NCBI GenBank assembly: GCA_038230075.1
Contig: JBBRNV010000002.1
Span: 62,215-126,214 of the forward strand
Direction of reading: 5' to 3'
Source of the DNA: Minisyncoccia bacterium
GTDB lineage: Bacteria; Patescibacteriota; Minisyncoccia; Phycocordibacterales; CALRBL01
Length of the DNA stretch: 64,000 nt
The notes under the pieces were generated by a model that ran no database searches, was not told the DNA's origin, and saw only the letters and a list, made by a program, of their open reading frames with translations. The position numbers and the translations under genes were made by a program. How positions within the stretch are numbered: the first letter of the stretch is position 1; every line of letters begins with the position of its first letter. This document shows, piece by piece, positions 21,425 to 42,873 of the stretch.

Positions 21425-22198
21425 ATGAGTATCGATCGAACGACTAAAATCTTAATTATTTGCCTTGTAGTAGCCTTTGCTATTCTTGTTGGATTAGTCG
21501 GTGGATACTTTCTATTTGGTCCTGCAGATCCTGCAGTTAAAATTCACAGCACGGGGTCAGAAGCAATGGTTACCGCAACAACAACTGCAACAACAACCGC
21601 GACAACCACGCCAAATCAAAATTCTACTTCAACTGTTAGTTCTTCAACTTCTCCTGTTCTTTCATATGTAAACGGCCTTATTCAAAATGAGGCAAGTTGG
21701 AAAAAAGTAGTAGATGAAGAAGGGGGATACGACTTCTCAATTCCTAAAGAATTTTCAGCAAGCACCTATGCTAATAAAAATATAGTAAGTACTTCACTCG
21801 GAAGACAGTACACTAGTACCGATTCATTTGAAGGAGAAACGCTTCAAGTTTTTGTTGAAGCAACTACTAATACTGTTGAAGCGTGTCAGGCTGTTGTAAC
21901 CAATAATTCCGATGTTCGTTCAGAAATTGGAAATGTGTCACTTCAAAAAACACTTATCTCTCGATTAGGTTCAAATACTTTCTATCAAACAACGTTTACT
22001 TCGAATGCTGTAAGTCGTTTGTCGACAAAAGGAAAAGTATATTCACTTTTCTCAAGTGATGGTCTTTGTTATGTTGGAATTGCATCATACTCAACCACTG
22101 ATCCAAATACTCTTACATCAGATTACGATCAGGCCTTTTTCAAGGTTGCTGAAGAAATGCTTGGAACATTTGAATTCGCTCAAGCTCCTACTAACTAA
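21425..22198 (+). CDS. Hypothetical membrane-anchored protein with a (TTTA)n Thr-rich repeat
   Basis: An N-terminal TM helix followed by TATTTATTTATTTP encoded by an imperfect ACAACAACYGCR repeat, then a Ser/Thr-rich ectodomain. Confidence 0.55.
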   Translation: MSIDRTTKILIICLVVAFAILVGLVGGYFLFGPADPAVKIHSTGSEAMVTATTTATTTATTTPNQNSTSTVSSSTSPVLSYVNGLIQNEASWKKVVDEEGGYDFSIPKEFSASTYANKNIVSTSLGRQYTSTDSFEGETLQVFVEATTNTVEACQAVVTNNSDVRSEIGNVSLQKTLISRLGSNTFYQTTFTSNAVSRLSTKGKVYSLFSSDGLCYVGIASYSTTDPNTLTSDYDQAFFKVAEEMLGTFEFAQAPTN

Positions 22199-23630: not shown

Positions 23631-26498
23631 ATGGAACAAAGTTTTTCACAAAACAAAGAACTTTTCTCTTCTCCTGAAGAAGAACTTGCATATTTGCGCG
23701 AGCGAGTTCAAAAACAAGAACAAGTATTGAAACAAAAAGGTGAGAATCCTGATCGAGAAGAGTTGATCATGAAAGAGTTGAAAGAATACACACAATCAAT
23801 TCCTGAAAAAACTTTAGCTAAGGGCTTTCAAATGATAGAGCCACATCAACAAGCCATTGTTCTCGATCTTATTCCTGAAACACATGATGATAAGATGTCA
23901 GAACTTCTTGGGCTTCTTCATGATAAAGGTTTTCTCAACACATTGTCTGTTGTTGAAAAGTTGGGTAATCCTCATATTGAATCCGATTTTCATCGGTTTC
24001 TAGTTGAATATATTAAGAAAGGATTTGAAGTAAAGGGAGCAAGTGAGAAATCTCCAATCTACAAAGCACTTCGACACACTCTATATGAAGTGTCGCTTCC
24101 TCGTCCAAAAAAAGAAGAAAAAGAACGGCAGTTGAAAGAAGTTATTTCAAGTATGGAACAGTTCTACGCAGGAATGCTTTCAGTTTCAACTGAAGCAGAG
24201 AGAAACACTGAAAACTTTTTTTCAATTGAACTGGCTATTTCAAATGACAGTCAAGAATTTGTTTTCTACGCTTCAGTTCCTGATAGTAAAACTAACCTGT
24301 TTGAAAAACAGCTTCTTTCTGTTTTTGCAGGAGCAAAGATTGTTGAAAAGAAAGATGATTACAATGTGTTTAATGCAGAGGGAATTACTGTTGCATCAGT
24401 TGCCAAACAAAAGAATAAACCAATTTTTCCAATCAAAACCTATGAGCAGTTTGACTATGATCCATTAAATATTGTTTTGAACACTCTTTCAAAGATTGAT
24501 AAGTCGGGGGAAGGAGCGTCTATTCAATTGGTCATCAATCCGTCTGGCGACTACTACCTTAAACCTTTTAAAAATGCACTAGAACAGATTCATAAGGGAG
24601 TGAAAGTGAAAGACGCAATCGATACTCCGTTCACTGCTGGTCAATTAATGAAAAAAGAGTTGAAAGAAATTGGTAAAACAATGTTTGATGAAGTGTTTAA
24701 GCGAAAAGATGACAAGAAAAAAGACGAAGAAAAATTTGAGAAAAAAGGGGTAAAGCCAGAAGATCAAAAAGTACTCGAGCAAATTGAGCAGAAAATATCT
24801 TCGCCAGTTACTGCTGTTAACATTCGTATTGTTGCGTCAGCTCCAAGTAGACATCGTGCAGAAGAAATTCTTTCAGATATTGAGTCTTCATTTAATCAGT
24901 TTGAAAACACTACGGGAAATGCTTTATCTTTTGATCGAGTTTCAGAGAAAGACCTTTCAAAAACAGTTCGAAATTTCTCATTTAGAATGTTCGACGATAG
25001 CCAAGCCCTTCCTATGAATTTGCGTGAAATTAGCTCTATTCTGCACTTCCCAGGCCAGTCTATTGTTGAAGGTGGACAATTGAAGCAAAGTAAGGCGAGT
25101 ACAGCTCCAGCGCCCCTTGATGCGCCTCGAGAAGGGGTCTATTTGGGTGTTAATAAGCACCGAAATCAAGAAGTTCCTATTTATATGACTCCTGAAGATC
25201 GACTTCGACACTTCTACGTTATTGGTCAAACAGGAACTGGAAAGACTACTCTTTTGAAAGACATGATTATTCAAGATATTAAGAATGGGGAAGGTGTCTG
25301 CTTTATCGATCCACACGGATCAGACGTGCAAGATATTTTGGCCCATATTCCACCTGAACGATTCGAAGATGTTATTTATTTCGATCCAAGTTATATTCCA
25401 CGGCCGATGGGAATGAATATGCTTGAATACGATCCTGCATATCCTGAGCAAAAAACATTCGTGGTAAATGAACTCTTTTCTATTTTTGATAAGTTGTTTG
25501 ACATGAAGACGACCGGAGGCCCAATGTTTGAACAATATTTTAGAAACTCAACAATGCTCGTGCTTGAAGATCCAGAATCAGGAAACACACTTCTTGATGT
25601 ATCTCGCGTGCTTTCAAATAAAGCATATCGAGAATTAAAAATTTCACGATGTAAGAATCCTATTGTTGTGCAGTTTTGGAAAGAAGTTGCTGAGAAGGCA
25701 GGAGGGGAATCATCACTTGCAAACATTGTTCCTTACATCACAAGTAAGTTTGATGTGTTTTTGGCAAACGATATTATGCGACCGCTTATTGCTCAAGAAA
25801 AATCGTCATTTGATTTCAGAAAGATTATGGATGAAAAGAAAATCTTACTTGTTAATCTTTCAAAAGGAAGATTGGGTGACATTAACGCTAACTTAATTGG
25901 TCTTATTTTGGTTGGAAAGATTTTGATGGCAGCACTTTCACGAGTAGATTCAATGGCTAAAGGTTTTCCTCCTTTCTATTTATATATCGATGAGTTCCAA
26001 AATGTGACCACAAATTCTATTTCAGTTATTTTGTCTGAAGCTCGAAAATATAAACTCTCACTTCATATCGCTCATCAATTTATTGCACAACTTAAAGAAG
26101 ATATTCGAGATGCCGTGTTTGGAAACGTTGGATCAATTGTTTCGTATCGAGTTGGTGCAGACGACGCTGAATATTTACAGAAACAATTTGAACCAGTTTT
26201 TACTTCAAACGATATTATGAATCTCGATAACCTGAACGCCTATTCACGACTTCTTATAAATGGCCGACCTGCTCGTCCTTTCAACATTACTGTGCCATTT
26301 CCTCCTGTGGTTGATAAATCTCACGTGCAGCCGTTGAAAGAACTTTCATATTTAAAATATGGAGGAGATAGAGAAGAGATTGAAGAAATGGTCATGAAGA
26401 AATATCGAAAAGAACCACCTCCAGCTCCTGCGCCATCACCGTTTCCTGCGGCAGAATCTCAACTTAAAAAGGCACTTAATCCATTCCTTGAGGTCTAA
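23631..26498 (+). CDS. FtsK/HerA-superfamily ATPase of the VirD4/TraD/TrwB (type IV coupling protein)-like family, soluble, with a roughly 500-aa N-terminal domain of unknown function
   Basis: Walker A GQTGTGKTT is followed immediately by CFIDPHGSD (the DP.G motif seen in TrwB/TraD and HerA). Walker B is LYIDEFQN, and the arginine-finger region is SEARKYKLSLHIAHQF. No TM segments are predicted. Confidence 0.7.
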   Translation: MEQSFSQNKELFSSPEEELAYLRERVQKQEQVLKQKGENPDREELIMKELKEYTQSIPEKTLAKGFQMIEPHQQAIVLDLIPETHDDKMSELLGLLHDKGFLNTLSVVEKLGNPHIESDFHRFLVEYIKKGFEVKGASEKSPIYKALRHTLYEVSLPRPKKEEKERQLKEVISSMEQFYAGMLSVSTEAERNTENFFSIELAISNDSQEFVFYASVPDSKTNLFEKQLLSVFAGAKIVEKKDDYNVFNAEGITVASVAKQKNKPIFPIKTYEQFDYDPLNIVLNTLSKIDKSGEGASIQLVINPSGDYYLKPFKNALEQIHKGVKVKDAIDTPFTAGQLMKKELKEIGKTMFDEVFKRKDDKKKDEEKFEKKGVKPEDQKVLEQIEQKISSPVTAVNIRIVASAPSRHRAEEILSDIESSFNQFENTTGNALSFDRVSEKDLSKTVRNFSFRMFDDSQALPMNLREISSILHFPGQSIVEGGQLKQSKASTAPAPLDAPREGVYLGVNKHRNQEVPIYMTPEDRLRHFYVIGQTGTGKTTLLKDMIIQDIKNGEGVCFIDPHGSDVQDILAHIPPERFEDVIYFDPSYIPRPMGMNMLEYDPAYPEQKTFVVNELFSIFDKLFDMKTTGGPMFEQYFRNSTMLVLEDPESGNTLLDVSRVLSNKAYRELKISRCKNPIVVQFWKEVAEKAGGESSLANIVPYITSKFDVFLANDIMRPLIAQEKSSFDFRKIMDEKKILLVNLSKGRLGDINANLIGLILVGKILMAALSRVDSMAKGFPPFYLYIDEFQNVTTNSISVILSEARKYKLSLHIAHQFIAQLKEDIRDAVFGNVGSIVSYRVGADDAEYLQKQFEPVFTSNDIMNLDNLNAYSRLLINGRPARPFNITVPFPPVVDKSHVQPLKELSYLKYGGDREEIEEMVMKKYRKEPPPAPAPSPFPAAESQLKKALNPFLEV

Positions 26499-39936: not shown

Positions 39937-40076
39937 AAATAGAGGTTGATAGTACTTCCTTAACACCCTCGTCGCTCCGCTCATGTGAATACTTCGTTAC
40001 ACTATTAACCTCTGTTTCTTTTTTTATTCTTATATTTATAACTGAACGAAAAAGATATTATTCCTTTTTCGCTTTG

Positions 40077-40085
40077 TGATATAAT
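40077..40085 (+). promoter_or_regulatory. Extended -10 element (TGaTATAAT) 7 nt upstream of the ATG, consistent with a leaderless transcript
   Basis: TG at 40077-78 and TATAAT at 40080-85. The ATG is at 40093. Confidence 0.4.
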
Positions 40086-40092
40086 TAACGAA

Positions 40093-42102
40093 ATGAACAA
40101 TCCCGACATCACATATTTCGCTCAAACAGACTCACGAAGTAGTCGGATTCCGTTCGGAATTAAATCTAAAGACAGAGCAAAGCATACCTATATCATTGGA
40201 AAGACTGGAATGGGTAAGTCGACAGTGCTTGAAAACATGACCATTCAAGATATTCAGAATGGCAATGGAGTTGCATTTCTTGATCCTCACGGAAAGACTG
40301 CAGACCTTTTTCTCGAATATGTTCCTGAACATCGAAAGAAAGATGTAATCTATTTCGCTCCGTTCGATATGGATCACCCTATCTCGTTCAATGTGCTCGA
40401 AGATGTTGGTCCAGATAAACGTCACTTGGTAACCAGTGGTCTTATGTCTGCTTTCAAAAAAATCTGGGTAGATGCATGGAGTGCTCGAATGGAATACATT
40501 TTAAATAATATTTTACTGGCACTTCTTGAATATCCTGGTTCAACTCTTATTGGGGTAAACCGAATGCTTGCCGATAAAGATTATCGAAAGAAAGTAGTTG
40601 ATAACATTAAAGACCCTTCAGTAAAGGCATTTTGGGTTGACGAATTTGCAAAATACGGAGATCGATATATGCAGGAAGCTGGAGCTTCAATTCAAAATAA
40701 AATCGGGCAATTCGTGTCTAATCCACTTGTTCGAAATATTATTGGTCAGCCGAAATCTACATTCGATCTTCGAAAGATTATGGATGATAAGAAAATTCTC
40801 ATCATCAACCTTTCGAAAGGAAGAATGGGAGAAACCAACGCCAATCTTATTGGAAGTATGTTGATCACAAAAATATATCTCGCTGCAATGTCGCGAGCTG
40901 ATTCAACAGAGTCTGTGCTGTCAAAACTTCCTCCATTTTATTTATATGTAGACGAATTTCAAAACTTCGCCAACGAATCATTTGCAGACATCCTTTCAGA
41001 AGCTCGAAAATATAAACTATGCTTAACAGTAGCCCATCAATACATTGAGCAAATGTCAGACGAAGTACGAGCCGCTGTGTTTGGAAACGTTGGAACCATG
41101 ATTACTTTTCGAGTGGGAGCGTATGATGCTGAAGTTCTTGAAAAAGAATTTGCACCACAGTTTACCGCTGAAGATTTAGTTAATCTTGGACGATTTCAAA
41201 TTTATTTAAAGTTGATGATTGATGAAGTGAGTTCGTCACCATTTTCTGCAACGACACTCCCTCAAATTGAAAAACCCATCATTTCATTTACTAATGAAAT
41301 TATTGAAAATTCTCGAGCAATGTATGCACGGCCTCGTCCTATTGTTGAACAAGAAATTAAAGATTGGCACGAAGATGGTGTGAAAAGAGACGAAACTTCT
41401 GGTGGAGGTAGAGGGCAAACAGGCGAACGAAGAAGTGTGTCAGCTGGATACGGTGGAGGGGCGCCCGGAGCACAATCAATTGCACCACGAAAGTTTGATC
41501 GACAAGCGGTTCCTCAAAACCTTGCTGCAAAACTTCCATCAATGACAACGCTTGCTCAAAACATGAGAAGCGAAGAACGCCAACGAGTAGATAGACAAAG
41601 TTCAGGACAAATGTCGACTCAGGGTTACAGCGCTCAACGTACTTCTGGTGGCTCATCAAGTTCATCTGCTGGTTTGCCTCCTCGAAGAATGCCTACAAAT
41701 GATAGTCCGTCAGTTTCAGAAATGGCCGCAGTACCTCAGTCAGTATCTCTTAATCATCTTAAGAATCCGCCACAAGAAAAATCTGCGAATACTCAAAAAG
41801 TGGCTACACCAGAACATATTTCAGAACTTCGAAATGCACTCAAAGCATTTATGAAGCCAGGCGCTCCAGTTGAAGAGGTTAAACAAGAATCTGTTACTGC
41901 AGAAAAACCAACAGAAGATAAAAAGGAAGAAGTGCTCAAAGAACATAATAAAGAAACAACTCACGCGCATGCTGCTCATAAACATTCCACAGAAAAGAAA
42001 GATGATGAGTCTGTTCATCACAAGAAACACACAAAAGAAGTGCCCAAAGAAGTGCTGATGGAAATTCTAGGAAATGAAGAGCAAGACTCGCTTAATGCAT
42101 AG
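40093..42102 (+). CDS. Second VirD4/TraD/TrwB-like FtsK/HerA-superfamily ATPase, paralogous to 23631..26498, with a roughly 250-aa disordered acidic/basic C-terminal tail
   Basis: Walker A GKTGMGKST, then AFLDPHGKT, Walker B LYVDEFQN, and SEARKYKLCLTVAHQY. The core aligns closely with the first copy over long stretches (SKGR.G..NANLIG ... FGNVG...FRVGA.DAE.L.K.F.P.FT..D..NL). Confidence 0.7.
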   Translation: MNNPDITYFAQTDSRSSRIPFGIKSKDRAKHTYIIGKTGMGKSTVLENMTIQDIQNGNGVAFLDPHGKTADLFLEYVPEHRKKDVIYFAPFDMDHPISFNVLEDVGPDKRHLVTSGLMSAFKKIWVDAWSARMEYILNNILLALLEYPGSTLIGVNRMLADKDYRKKVVDNIKDPSVKAFWVDEFAKYGDRYMQEAGASIQNKIGQFVSNPLVRNIIGQPKSTFDLRKIMDDKKILIINLSKGRMGETNANLIGSMLITKIYLAAMSRADSTESVLSKLPPFYLYVDEFQNFANESFADILSEARKYKLCLTVAHQYIEQMSDEVRAAVFGNVGTMITFRVGAYDAEVLEKEFAPQFTAEDLVNLGRFQIYLKLMIDEVSSSPFSATTLPQIEKPIISFTNEIIENSRAMYARPRPIVEQEIKDWHEDGVKRDETSGGGRGQTGERRSVSAGYGGGAPGAQSIAPRKFDRQAVPQNLAAKLPSMTTLAQNMRSEERQRVDRQSSGQMSTQGYSAQRTSGGSSSSSAGLPPRRMPTNDSPSVSEMAAVPQSVSLNHLKNPPQEKSANTQKVATPEHISELRNALKAFMKPGAPVEEVKQESVTAEKPTEDKKEEVLKEHNKETTHAHAAHKHSTEKKDDESVHHKKHTKEVPKEVLMEILGNEEQDSLNA

Positions 42103-42873
42103 TTTGAGATATCCGATATAAAAGTTTGGATAATCATTTCGGTATCGCTGTATGATTTGCCACGAAGCTTGAAGCCCTTTCGTTCTGTTTTCTGAAGAAG
42201 CACTTTTTTTATGAAATCTGAATGTTACTGAGTAGTCGGGAATATTTGCAAACTTGTATGTTTTCCCAATTCGAAACCAAAGATCGTAATCTTCCCAGAT
42301 AATAATAGTTGGATCATAGATATCACCTTCGCTATTGCATGGAGTGAGAGCAGACTTTCTAATCATAACTGTTGAGTGGGCAAATTGATTGCGAAACATC
42401 ATGTTTCTTCGTATCGATTTATCGCTGGTGGCATAAGTGATAGGAGAGACAAAGACCCCTTTGTCATTAATTGAATTACCAAATGTTCCTACCAATGCAT
42501 ATTCTGCATGTTCCTTTTTCAAAAAGAATGCAACTTGTTTAGTAATTTTTTCTTCATCATTCCAAAAGTCATCACTGTCAACTACGGCTATATATTCACC
42601 TTTCGTGAATGTGTGGGCTTTGTTTCGTGCCGCTGTAATTCCTATATTTTTTTCTCCTTTAATATATCTGATTCTTTTATCTATATAGGTGGCGATTAAT
42701 TGTTCAGTATCATCAGTTGAGGCATCATCGTAAATAATAAATTCAAAATTTGTGTATGTCTGGGAAAGCACTCCTTCAATTGCATCTTTCAAATAGTGAG
42801 CTCGATTGTATGTGCAAAGAATAACAGAAACGAGTGGTGATTGAGCTTGTGTTGTACTTACGTCGGGATTCAT
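42067..42873 (-). CDS. Glycosyltransferase family 2
   Basis: VSVILCTYNRA ... YDDASTDDT (DxD) motifs. Confidence 0.85.
   Translation of the reverse strand: MNPDVSTTQAQSPLVSVILCTYNRAHYLKDAIEGVLSQTYTNFEFIIYDDASTDDTEQLIATYIDKRIRYIKGEKNIGITAARNKAHTFTKGEYIAVVDSDDFWNDEEKITKQVAFFLKKEHAEYALVGTFGNSINDKGVFVSPITYATSDKSIRRNMMFRNQFAHSTVMIRKSALTPCNSEGDIYDPTIIIWEDYDLWFRIGKTYKFANIPDYSVTFRFHKKSASSENRTKGLQASWQIIQRYRNDYPNFYIGYLKLCIKRVLLFIS

Follow-up and report, generated by a model that had tools for sequence, protein, structure and literature searches.

What might an ATPase that resembles the coupling proteins of type IV secretion systems (T4SSs) be doing in an ordinary stretch of chromosome, with no other gene of such a system nearby? 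The question is raised by gene A, as I call it here, at 40093..42102 on the forward strand of a 64,000-nucleotide stretch of contig JBBRNV010000002.1 from a Minisyncoccia bacterium; the whole of this stretch is referred to as the window. The product of A is predicted to be a soluble ATPase resembling VirD4 and TrwB, the type IV coupling proteins (T4CPs), and a longer homologue, gene B, lies at 23631..26498 (+). Neither VirB4, VirB6, PrgI or other T4SS genes nor a relaxase was detected among the scanned open reading frames (ORFs) of the window. An earlier note on this DNA had taken A and B for diverged paralogues, each of which carries a module that the other lacks, and I follow up that proposal here. 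The answer I favour, with a probability of about 0.55, is that A is a soluble ATPase derived from coupling proteins, that it belongs to an ancient chromosomal housekeeping pair, and that its disordered tail docks partners.

An ancient pair of paralogues

The ORF of A proved real, with an ATG start on the plus strand and a length of 669 amino acids, and so did its relationship to B. In a BLASTP comparison, 169 of 389 residues are identical (43%, E = 1e-105) within a single collinear match that joins A residues 7-388 to B residues 503-888, far above the 25% that the earlier note had set as the lower limit for paralogues. The identity between A and B amounts to 40-46% in every genome compared, whereas orthologues are 60-80% identical (those of B are full-length and 57-69% identical), and the duplication is therefore ancient. 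Judged by these values, A and B are old paralogues that form separate orthologous groups. A recent local duplication or the remnant of a mobile element was considered and rejected, as the same identities speak against it, the GC content of the A region is the same as that of its surroundings, and no integrase or relaxase lies nearby. Both genes co-occur on one contig in three genomes. The end of B is separated from the start of A by 13.6 kb in the window, and by 8.4 kb and about 49 kb in the two other genomes, so that the distance of 14 kb to which attention had been drawn is right in size but incidental. A second A-type copy within 6 kb was absent from all 80 A loci.

The ATPase core of A comprises residues 1-426 (40093..41370, +), as delimited by conservation, identity to B and Foldseek matches. 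It contains the Walker A motif GKTGMGKST (residues 36-44, 40198-40224, +), the Walker B motif YLYVDEF (residues 283-289, 40939-40959, +) and a further block conserved across orthologues, ARKYKL...AHQYIEQM (residues 304-321). In an alignment of 32 orthologues the key residues of both Walker motifs are invariant, as are more than 200 columns of the core, and between candidate families of Paceibacteria the core is 75-80% identical; purifying selection on it is evidently very strong. Homologues of A number at least 8000, every candidate scored in the search having passed. AlphaFold2 models residues 50-320 with predicted local distance difference test (pLDDT) scores of 85-94, including an all-helical insertion at residues 107-231 (40411..40785, +) that would lie inside the nucleotide-binding domain, where T4CPs have their all-alpha domain. 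Its helices span residues 107-124, 131-146, 153-170, 175-208, 211-217 and 226-231 (pLDDT 85-94).

That A lacks the N-terminal module of B, as had been claimed, is borne out by the position of Walker A, which starts at residue 36 in A and is preceded by about 500 residues in B. In the AlphaFold2 model, some 25 residues forming two short strands come before the P-loop domain. This short N-terminus is found in nearly all of the 73 orthologous loci listed, where the ATG lies 35-43 amino acids before Walker A (35 in A itself), usually with an in-frame stop just ahead of it. No membrane segment was found in A, the highest hydropathy over 19 residues being 1.18 at a position within the core.

B has 955 residues and consists of a helical N-terminal stretch, the domain DUF8128 (PF26449; the assignment is taken from the records of its orthologues) and a T4CP-like core at residues 500-890 or thereabouts. 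It has no membrane segment either, and no hydrophobic stretch was seen outside its ATPase core. The top Foldseek match of the full B model is a full-length VirB4, TrwK of R388, with about 950 aligned columns and an E value of 4e-10 at a TM-score of only 0.24; from this model, DUF8128 may resemble the VirB4 N-terminal domain (B residues 1-500, 23631..25130). In the collection of papers searched, nothing useful was found on DUF8128, or on Parcubacteria with TraG.

The tail of A

Behind the core, A continues in a C-terminal tail of 243 residues (residues 427-669, 41371..42099, +), recognised by its composition and its pLDDT. The tail is rich in S (11.1%), E (10.2%), A (9.0%), K (8.6%), G (7.4%), P (6.6%), Q (6.1%) and H (4.5%), and apart from two short helices AlphaFold2 gives it pLDDT values below 50. 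The last 80 residues carry a net charge of -7 and include 8 His. Among orthologues the tails vary from 4 to 466 residues (median 188) and are highly variable in sequence, though similarly rich in K, P, E and S. The long tail announced in the earlier note is thus there and is predicted to be disordered; it is not plain low complexity, because three conserved motifs stand within it.

The first, M1 (QSVSLNHLKN, residues 548-557, 41734..41763, +), was recognised by alignment and is degenerate in A compared with the orthologue consensus E(R/K)E..LRKA(I/M)SL..LK. M2 (KVATPEHISELRNALKAF, residues 569-586, 41797..41850, +) would form an amphipathic helix, predicted at residues 573-587 with a pLDDT of about 74, and its residues K569, L579 and L583 are invariant in the 32 aligned orthologues. 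The third motif, M3 (KEVPKEVLMEIL, residues 648-659, 42034..42069, +), is an amphipathic peptide of the KEVPEDVLRKIL type close to the C-terminus. Its consensus reads (K/R)E(V/I)PE(D/E)xL(R/K)x(I/M)L, with E649, L655 and L659 invariant and P651 nearly so in the same alignment, and AlphaFold2 places a helix at residues 652-668. The strict M3 pattern occurs in 43 of 72 orthologues, and by eye almost all of the others fit a looser form. A few members (L051, L053, P0285, P0309 and P0319) end in an alternative peptide, (I/L)KPG(Q/E)x(V/I)xF(D/K), for example SGILKPGQNVKFD. A His-rich patch, HAHAAHKHSTEKKDDESVHHKKH, occupies residues 623-646 (41959..42030), and some orthologues have other His-rich stretches such as HVHNEKSVHVHT.

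With a folded core followed by a flexible linker and by conserved peptides towards its end, A has the layout of an interaction hub, as in the extensions of TraD and DotL, and for this reason I infer that the tail recruits one or more partners through its conserved helical peptides, a docking role that is proposed from the analysis of the motifs. That M3 could be a substitute membrane tether or targeting helix is disfavoured, since the motif is acidic and a relative with a hydrophobic N-terminal helix of its own, P0296, also ends in an M3-like peptide. The idea that B shares M2 at its C-terminus was likewise dropped, as an alignment of B orthologues gives it no support.

Affiliation of the ATPase core

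Several Pfam families of the coupling-protein kind match A above their cut-offs: TrwB_AAD_bind with 36.3 bits (cut-off 20.5; residues 25-341), T4SS-DNA_transf with 30.1 bits (cut-off 20.1; of the two proteins only A matches it) and TraG-D_C with 24.5 bits (cut-off 22). DUF87 (HerA) also scores above its gathering cut-off. For TrwB_AAD_bind, TraG-D_C and DUF87, both A and B exceed the gathering scores only just. FtsK_SpoIIIE is not among the Pfam and NCBIfam matches of A at E <= 0.01. When a profile of A was compared with the sequences in the PDB, the sole match was the P-loop region of TrwB, a weak one (E = 0.003).

The best Foldseek match of the A model is DotL (6sz9, E = 2.7e-9), followed by HerA (4d2i, E = 1.3e-8), with Cag-beta and TrwB among the further matches and DndH-C and VirB4 later, and in all of these the identity is 13-16%. 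TrwB and Cag-beta are matched with E values of about 1e-6 to 1e-7 and target-normalised TM-scores of 0.5 for A and 0.55-0.6 for B. Of the features of a T4CP, A has the P-loop with Walker A and Walker B and, according to the AlphaFold2 model and the fold matches, the all-alpha insertion in the nucleotide-binding domain; the N-terminal transmembrane anchor is missing. From profiles and models, A is a member of the VirB4/VirD4/HerA superfamily, with coupling proteins as its probable closest relatives. It also has what characterises the chromosomal T4CP homologues of Patescibacteria, namely a match to a T4CP profile, presence as a pair in the window and absence of virB4 from these 64 kb.

Two other affiliations were rejected. 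A VirB4 identity does not agree with the missing N-terminal domain or with the 21 bits that A scores against TIGR00929 (cut-off 643). For an ATPase of a defence system (HerA-Sir2, DndH, MADS) there are only weak matches at the level of the superfamily, among them those to HerA and mad8 in PADLOC, and the context is one of housekeeping genes.

Origin of the two forms

An exhaustive search with the A core yielded 22,606 representative clusters, 6,160 of them at E <= 1e-30. Among the best 150, 66 have the core first and then a tail (median about 247 residues), at least 20 have an N-terminal extension of about 380-470 residues that starts with a membrane helix, and several combine such an extension with a long tail. 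In the relatives that have membrane helix, DUF8128, core and tail, the core is 50-58% identical to that of A. P0296 may serve as an example: its core is 58% identical to A, it has a DUF8128-like region and aligns to B residues 148-921 (31%, E = 3e-106), and its tail has the M3-like end mentioned above. Its N-terminal hydrophobic helix is clear by eye, at a value under the hydropathy threshold used. NCBI lists P0309 as a T4SS DNA-binding-domain protein of Patescibacteria.

Outside the Patescibacteria, a plasmid of Embleya sp. NBC_00896 encodes a homologue, WP_331738717.1, that is 30% identical to A over the core and aligns to B over 546 residues, including part of DUF8128 (27%, E = 1e-56). It has one N-terminal membrane helix and a DUF8128-like region, and its gene cluster comprises PrgI, a VirB4-like ATPase, the T4CP, a relaxase-like protein and an NlpC-P60 protein. 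Because of this homologue, the simplest reading of the sequences is that the family derives from the coupling proteins of conjugation systems of single-membrane bacteria. As other Patescibacteria encode forms with helix, DUF8128, core and tail, the simplest reading of A is that of a truncated, soluble derivative, which would have kept core and tail and lost the membrane helix and DUF8128; B in this genome would have kept DUF8128, without a membrane helix. The partition of modules between the two copies that had been suggested is therefore supported, by the existence of single proteins with all modules in other Patescibacteria: B keeps DUF8128, and A the tail.

A stand-alone core of 395 residues, without N-terminal domain and without tail, is encoded on an alphaproteobacterial plasmid of Sulfitobacter mediterraneus (NZ_CP081110.1, 99994-101181; locus L085). 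It is 40% identical to A, almost the same value as between A and B, and T4SS genes are absent from its surroundings, which comprise a recombinase, transposases and a DUF3768 gene.

Expression

The extended -10 element before A that had been noticed earlier, TGaTATAAT (TGATATAAT, 40077..40085, +), was confirmed; a spacer of 7 nt (40086-40092) separates it from the ATG at 40093. In the upstream sequence neither a usable -35 element nor a sequence resembling a Shine-Dalgarno could be found, and a consensus promoter scan omits this promoter because it demands a -35. By itself the motif is not beyond chance, as TGNTATAAT sites occur six times in the window against 3.0 expected. Its position is another matter: of 72 orthologous loci, 45 have a -10-like hexamer whose end lies 5-11 nt ahead of the ATG, and 18 of these hexamers carry TGn; the counts rise sharply at 6-10 nt, other positions having about one each. 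Sequences resembling a Shine-Dalgarno are found in three of the 72 loci.

B has a TATAAT of its own, 7 nt before its ATG, and in all five B orthologues examined a TATAAT lies 7-9 nt before the start, four times in the TGNTATAAT form, with TG and one base ahead. In the window, about two of 57 inspected genes have a Shine-Dalgarno-like sequence. In some eleven genes (for example at 322, 18604, 23631, 29805, 30603, 32301, 37107, 39751, 42873(-) and 45535(-)) a -10 hexamer near the consensus ends 4-10 nt ahead of the start codon, some of these genes standing within apparent operons, and a TATAAT at 6-7 nt from the ATG, as in B, is shared by many genes. Leaderless expression thus looks like the norm, a general habit of this organism, and for A a leaderless mRNA is predicted. 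The leaderless promoter proposed in the earlier note is accordingly conserved in position but not special to A.

Upstream of this promoter lies a terminator-like hairpin (39937..40030, +) with a stem of 17 bp, a loop of about 45 nt and then the T-run GTTTCTTTTTTTATTC. Its predicted RNA fold has an energy of -23.3 kcal/mol (z = -4.6), which none of 200 shuffled sequences equalled; a consensus terminator scan, in which loops longer than 8 nt are passed over, did not report it. The genes beyond the hairpin code for a bPH protein of the membrane, for two small proteins that have signal peptides and for a 61-residue protein of two helices. One close relative examined shares these neighbours, and none of 80 other loci has them. 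Co-expression of A with the bPH and small secreted proteins, as anticipated previously, is therefore unlikely, since the hairpin and T-run stand in between and the neighbourhood is not conserved, and an operon of A with these genes was rejected on the same grounds and because A has its own promoter.

Genomic setting

The window is an ordinary chromosomal stretch of low GC content (36-43%). It contains fusA, a ClpB-like gene, a Mur ligase gene and tuf, then a long ribosomal-protein cluster with secY, adk and map, followed by ndk, a branched-chain amino-acid ABC transporter, a beta-CASP RNase, htrA and secA, and a large glycan-synthesis cluster on the minus strand. Scans of the whole window for Rfam families and tRNAs gave no matches. 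Homologues of A and B come from metagenome-assembled genomes (MAGs) named Paceibacterota, Parcubacteria, Zambryski-, Taylor-, Yonath-, Nomura-, Adler- and Campbellbacteria, and by these names the host is assigned to the Patescibacteria (the candidate phyla radiation, CPR), class Paceibacteria.

In every genome examined (the window and loci L082-L084, L089 and L091), B follows map and precedes ndk where the ribosomal-protein/secY/adk cluster ends, an odd site for a conjugation-type ATPase. Between secY and adk, an ORF of 257 residues (21425..22198, +) has no Pfam match; other Paceibacteria have different unannotated inserts in their secY/adk cluster.

The neighbours of A in the window are HtrA, the bPH protein, the small secreted proteins and glycosyltransferases. 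A family-2 glycosyltransferase (GT2) gene, identified from the ORF list and by Pfam, runs convergently to it at 42067..42873 (-) as the first gene of the minus-strand glycan-synthesis cluster; the 3' ends of the two genes overlap by 36 nt (42067..42102), close relatives are arranged alike, and no terminator-like structure was found after A. In 80 orthologous loci (L002-L081), no VirB4, VirB6, PrgI or relaxase was found within 6 kb of A. In 57 of them A is preceded, in the same orientation, by a gene for a putative glycosyl hydrolase of the DUF4015 family; GT4 glycosyltransferase genes follow it in 50, and 25 have a gene for a surface protein that combines lamin-tail with PKD domains (LTD/PKD). 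The next gene on the same strand is LTD/PKD in 22 and GT4 in another 22 of the 71 loci with an anchored A gene, and the gap from A to the next gene usually measures -3 to +40 nt. In other Paceibacteria rsmI or murC often precedes A. This adjacency to glycan and surface genes is weak evidence of function.

Previous observations on the family

The existence, the abundance and the odd placement of this family have already been published. Quinonero-Coronel et al. (2025, Microb Genom; PMC12102498) count 5,713 VirD4-type T4CP homologues, spread over 2,918 of the 3,035 genomes of Patescibacteria surveyed and with virB4 close by in just 148 cases, and report VirB4 in 2,417 genomes; exaptation is raised there as well. 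In the T4SS cluster of Southlakia epibionticum, Wang et al. (2023; PMC10633639) could recognise neither a coupling protein nor a relaxase. NCBI names the orthologues 'type IV secretion system DNA-binding domain-containing protein' or 'TraM recognition domain-containing protein'. A itself is typical of its lineage, one ordinary orthologue among thousands of annotated proteins, and the result is incremental in this respect. Relative to the passages of PMC12102498 consulted, what goes beyond the published counts is the split into A and B, the forms with membrane helix, DUF8128, core and tail, the motifs of the tail, the leaderless promoters and the map-B-ndk synteny.

Possible function

The course of events that I propose starts with an ancestral coupling protein of conjugation machines, from which A would have arisen after loss of the membrane helix and DUF8128. 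The extended -10 promoter that belongs to A alone would give rise to a leaderless mRNA, with the hairpin insulating A from the genes upstream. Its core would be a ring-shaped motor driven by nucleoside triphosphates, or a receptor, as in the superfamily, and the flexible tail of some 240 residues might act as a fishing line, on which the conserved peptides M1, M2 and M3 dock one or more partners. Candidates for these are a substrate or adaptor, a patescibacterial T4SS-like apparatus, or the paralogue B. A could either still serve a T4SS or have been exapted, as the data fit both.

A number of observations weigh against this account. The NCBIfam TraD and CD1115 VirD4-like models give A only 45-47 bits at cut-offs of 250-366, its identity to solved T4CPs is a mere 13-16%, and HerA matches its fold nearly as well as DotL and TrwB do. 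The T4SS and relaxase neighbours that are a feature of T4CPs are missing, both from the scanned ORFs of the window and from the 6 kb around A in the 80 loci. Residues 332-387 are conserved and yet modelled with low confidence by AlphaFold2. Use of the promoter and leaderless translation are predictions from the sequence; ring formation, ATPase activity and the substrate of A have been deduced, and the partners of the tail are candidates. An obligatory T4SS role is also argued against by the larger number of genomes with T4CP homologues than with VirB4 and by S. epibionticum, in which the T4CP homologue is not essential and the T4SS genes are (both according to PMC12102498).

In the first of the other explanations, A would be a working coupling protein, a cytoplasmic receptor that feeds protein or DNA cargo to a VirB4/VirB6 channel encoded elsewhere, with the tail motifs binding cargo or adaptors and with docking to the channel in place of a membrane anchor. 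The Pfam scores above the T4CP cut-offs and the folds like those of DotL, Cag-beta and TrwB agree with it, as do the Embleya homologue inside a conjugative-type T4SS cluster and the fact that the C-terminal extensions of T4CPs such as TraD and DotL bind cargo or adaptors. Moreover, the T4SSs of Patescibacteria are described as widespread and essential, with coupling-protein genes often far from virB4 (PMC12102498). However, the same counts leave about 500 more genomes with T4CP homologues than with VirB4, and only the 148 of 5,713 homologues near virB4; the homologue of S. epibionticum is dispensable where its T4SS is not, and no coupling protein or relaxase is recognizable in its T4SS cluster (PMC10633639). 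Together with the missing membrane anchor of A and the window without T4SS genes, this makes the explanation possible but doubtful. Alternatively, A, with or without B, may have been exapted as a nucleic-acid translocase of the HerA/FtsK kind that is independent of T4SSs, in chromosome segregation or resolution, DNA repair or DNA uptake for example, its tail serving as a tether to the machinery. Such a role would suit a family that is near-universal in the phylum, with about two copies per genome, and commoner than VirB4, and PMC12102498 already suggests exaptation. It would also suit the strong conservation of the core between candidate families, the chromosomal housekeeping context with B between map and ndk, and HerA as second-best fold match. 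Yet A has no HAS-barrel, no NurA-like partner nearby, no FtsK_SpoIIIE among the Pfam families listed and no dedicated DNA-binding domain that could be identified, and its neighbours are unlinked to replication, repair or division, save for the loose adjacency of murC and rsmI in some genomes; I consider this explanation unlikely.

A bolder version, equally hard to believe at present, makes A and B the two halves of a phylum-wide housekeeping machine that works independently of T4SSs, in which the tail of A docks onto B or onto a core machine of the cell. The ancestral coupling protein, with membrane helix, DUF8128, core and tail, would then have been divided into one motor with DUF8128, namely B, expressed beside the ribosomal-protein/secY cluster, and another with the tail, namely A. 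If this were true, an ATPase of conjugative descent would perform an essential-type task, the moving of nucleic acid or protein, in ultra-small bacteria. The neighbours of A, finally, might suggest that it works with the production of envelope glycans or surface proteins, for instance as the energy source for exporting or assembling a surface polymer. In favour of this are the frequencies of DUF4015, GT4 and LTD/PKD genes beside A, the short gaps downstream, and the cluster of GT2, GT11 and methyltransferase genes that abuts A in the window and in close relatives. However, this cluster is convergent in the window and the nearest relatives and thus not co-transcribed with A, most genomes give A its own promoter, and gene order within one class can reflect inheritance instead of function. 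ATPases of the T4CP type are not known to take part in glycan export, and I regard the explanation as very improbable.

Returning to the soluble, tail-bearing derivative of a coupling protein as the preferred account, its interest lies in the host group. Patescibacteria account for much of the diversity of bacteria, and although their genomes are tiny, nearly all retain about two coupling-protein-like ATPases; in the one species tested, T4SS genes proved essential to life as an epibiont, and no coupling protein has been tied to that T4SS. The soluble core with its tail, the putative docking peptides and the relatives that combine all modules turn the label 'T4CP homologue' into hypotheses that can be tested.

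Comparison with known systems

TrwB of R388 and Cag-beta of Helicobacter pylori have, like A, a P-loop domain with an all-helical insertion. TrwB differs in its N-terminal transmembrane domain and in belonging to a plasmid with relaxase and T4SS, whereas A is chromosomal, without a membrane segment and without T4SS or relaxase genes in its vicinity. HerA, of the archaeal HerA-NurA pair and of bacterial defence systems, is a member of the same FtsK/HerA/VirB4/VirD4 superfamily; A lacks the HAS-barrel and a partner gene of the NurA, Sir2 or DUF4297 kind, and its helical insertion is typical of T4CPs. FtsK and SpoIIIE are defined by the motor-domain profile and a gamma (winged-helix) domain, and A gave no match to the FtsK_SpoIIIE profile at E <= 0.01.

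The tail has its closest models in two coupling proteins with C-terminal extensions. DotL (IcmO) of the Legionella Dot/Icm system binds IcmS/IcmW, LvgA and DotN through its extension, and TraD of the F plasmid binds TraM through an extension with an acidic C-terminus. DotL is the best fold match of A, and its partner-binding extension is a model for the tail; the last 80 residues of A are acidic, as is the end of TraD. DotL and TraD are, in contrast to A, anchored in the membrane and part of defined secretion or conjugation systems, the sequences of the motifs are unrelated, and no homologues of their partners are known here. The T4CP of Embleya differs from A in its membrane helix, its plasmid-borne T4SS cluster and the absence of a long disordered tail. 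The closest likeness is to the VirD4-type homologues of Patescibacteria (PMC12102498), which are the same proteins as A and B: they match T4CP profiles, occur about twice per genome and nearly always lie far from virB4.

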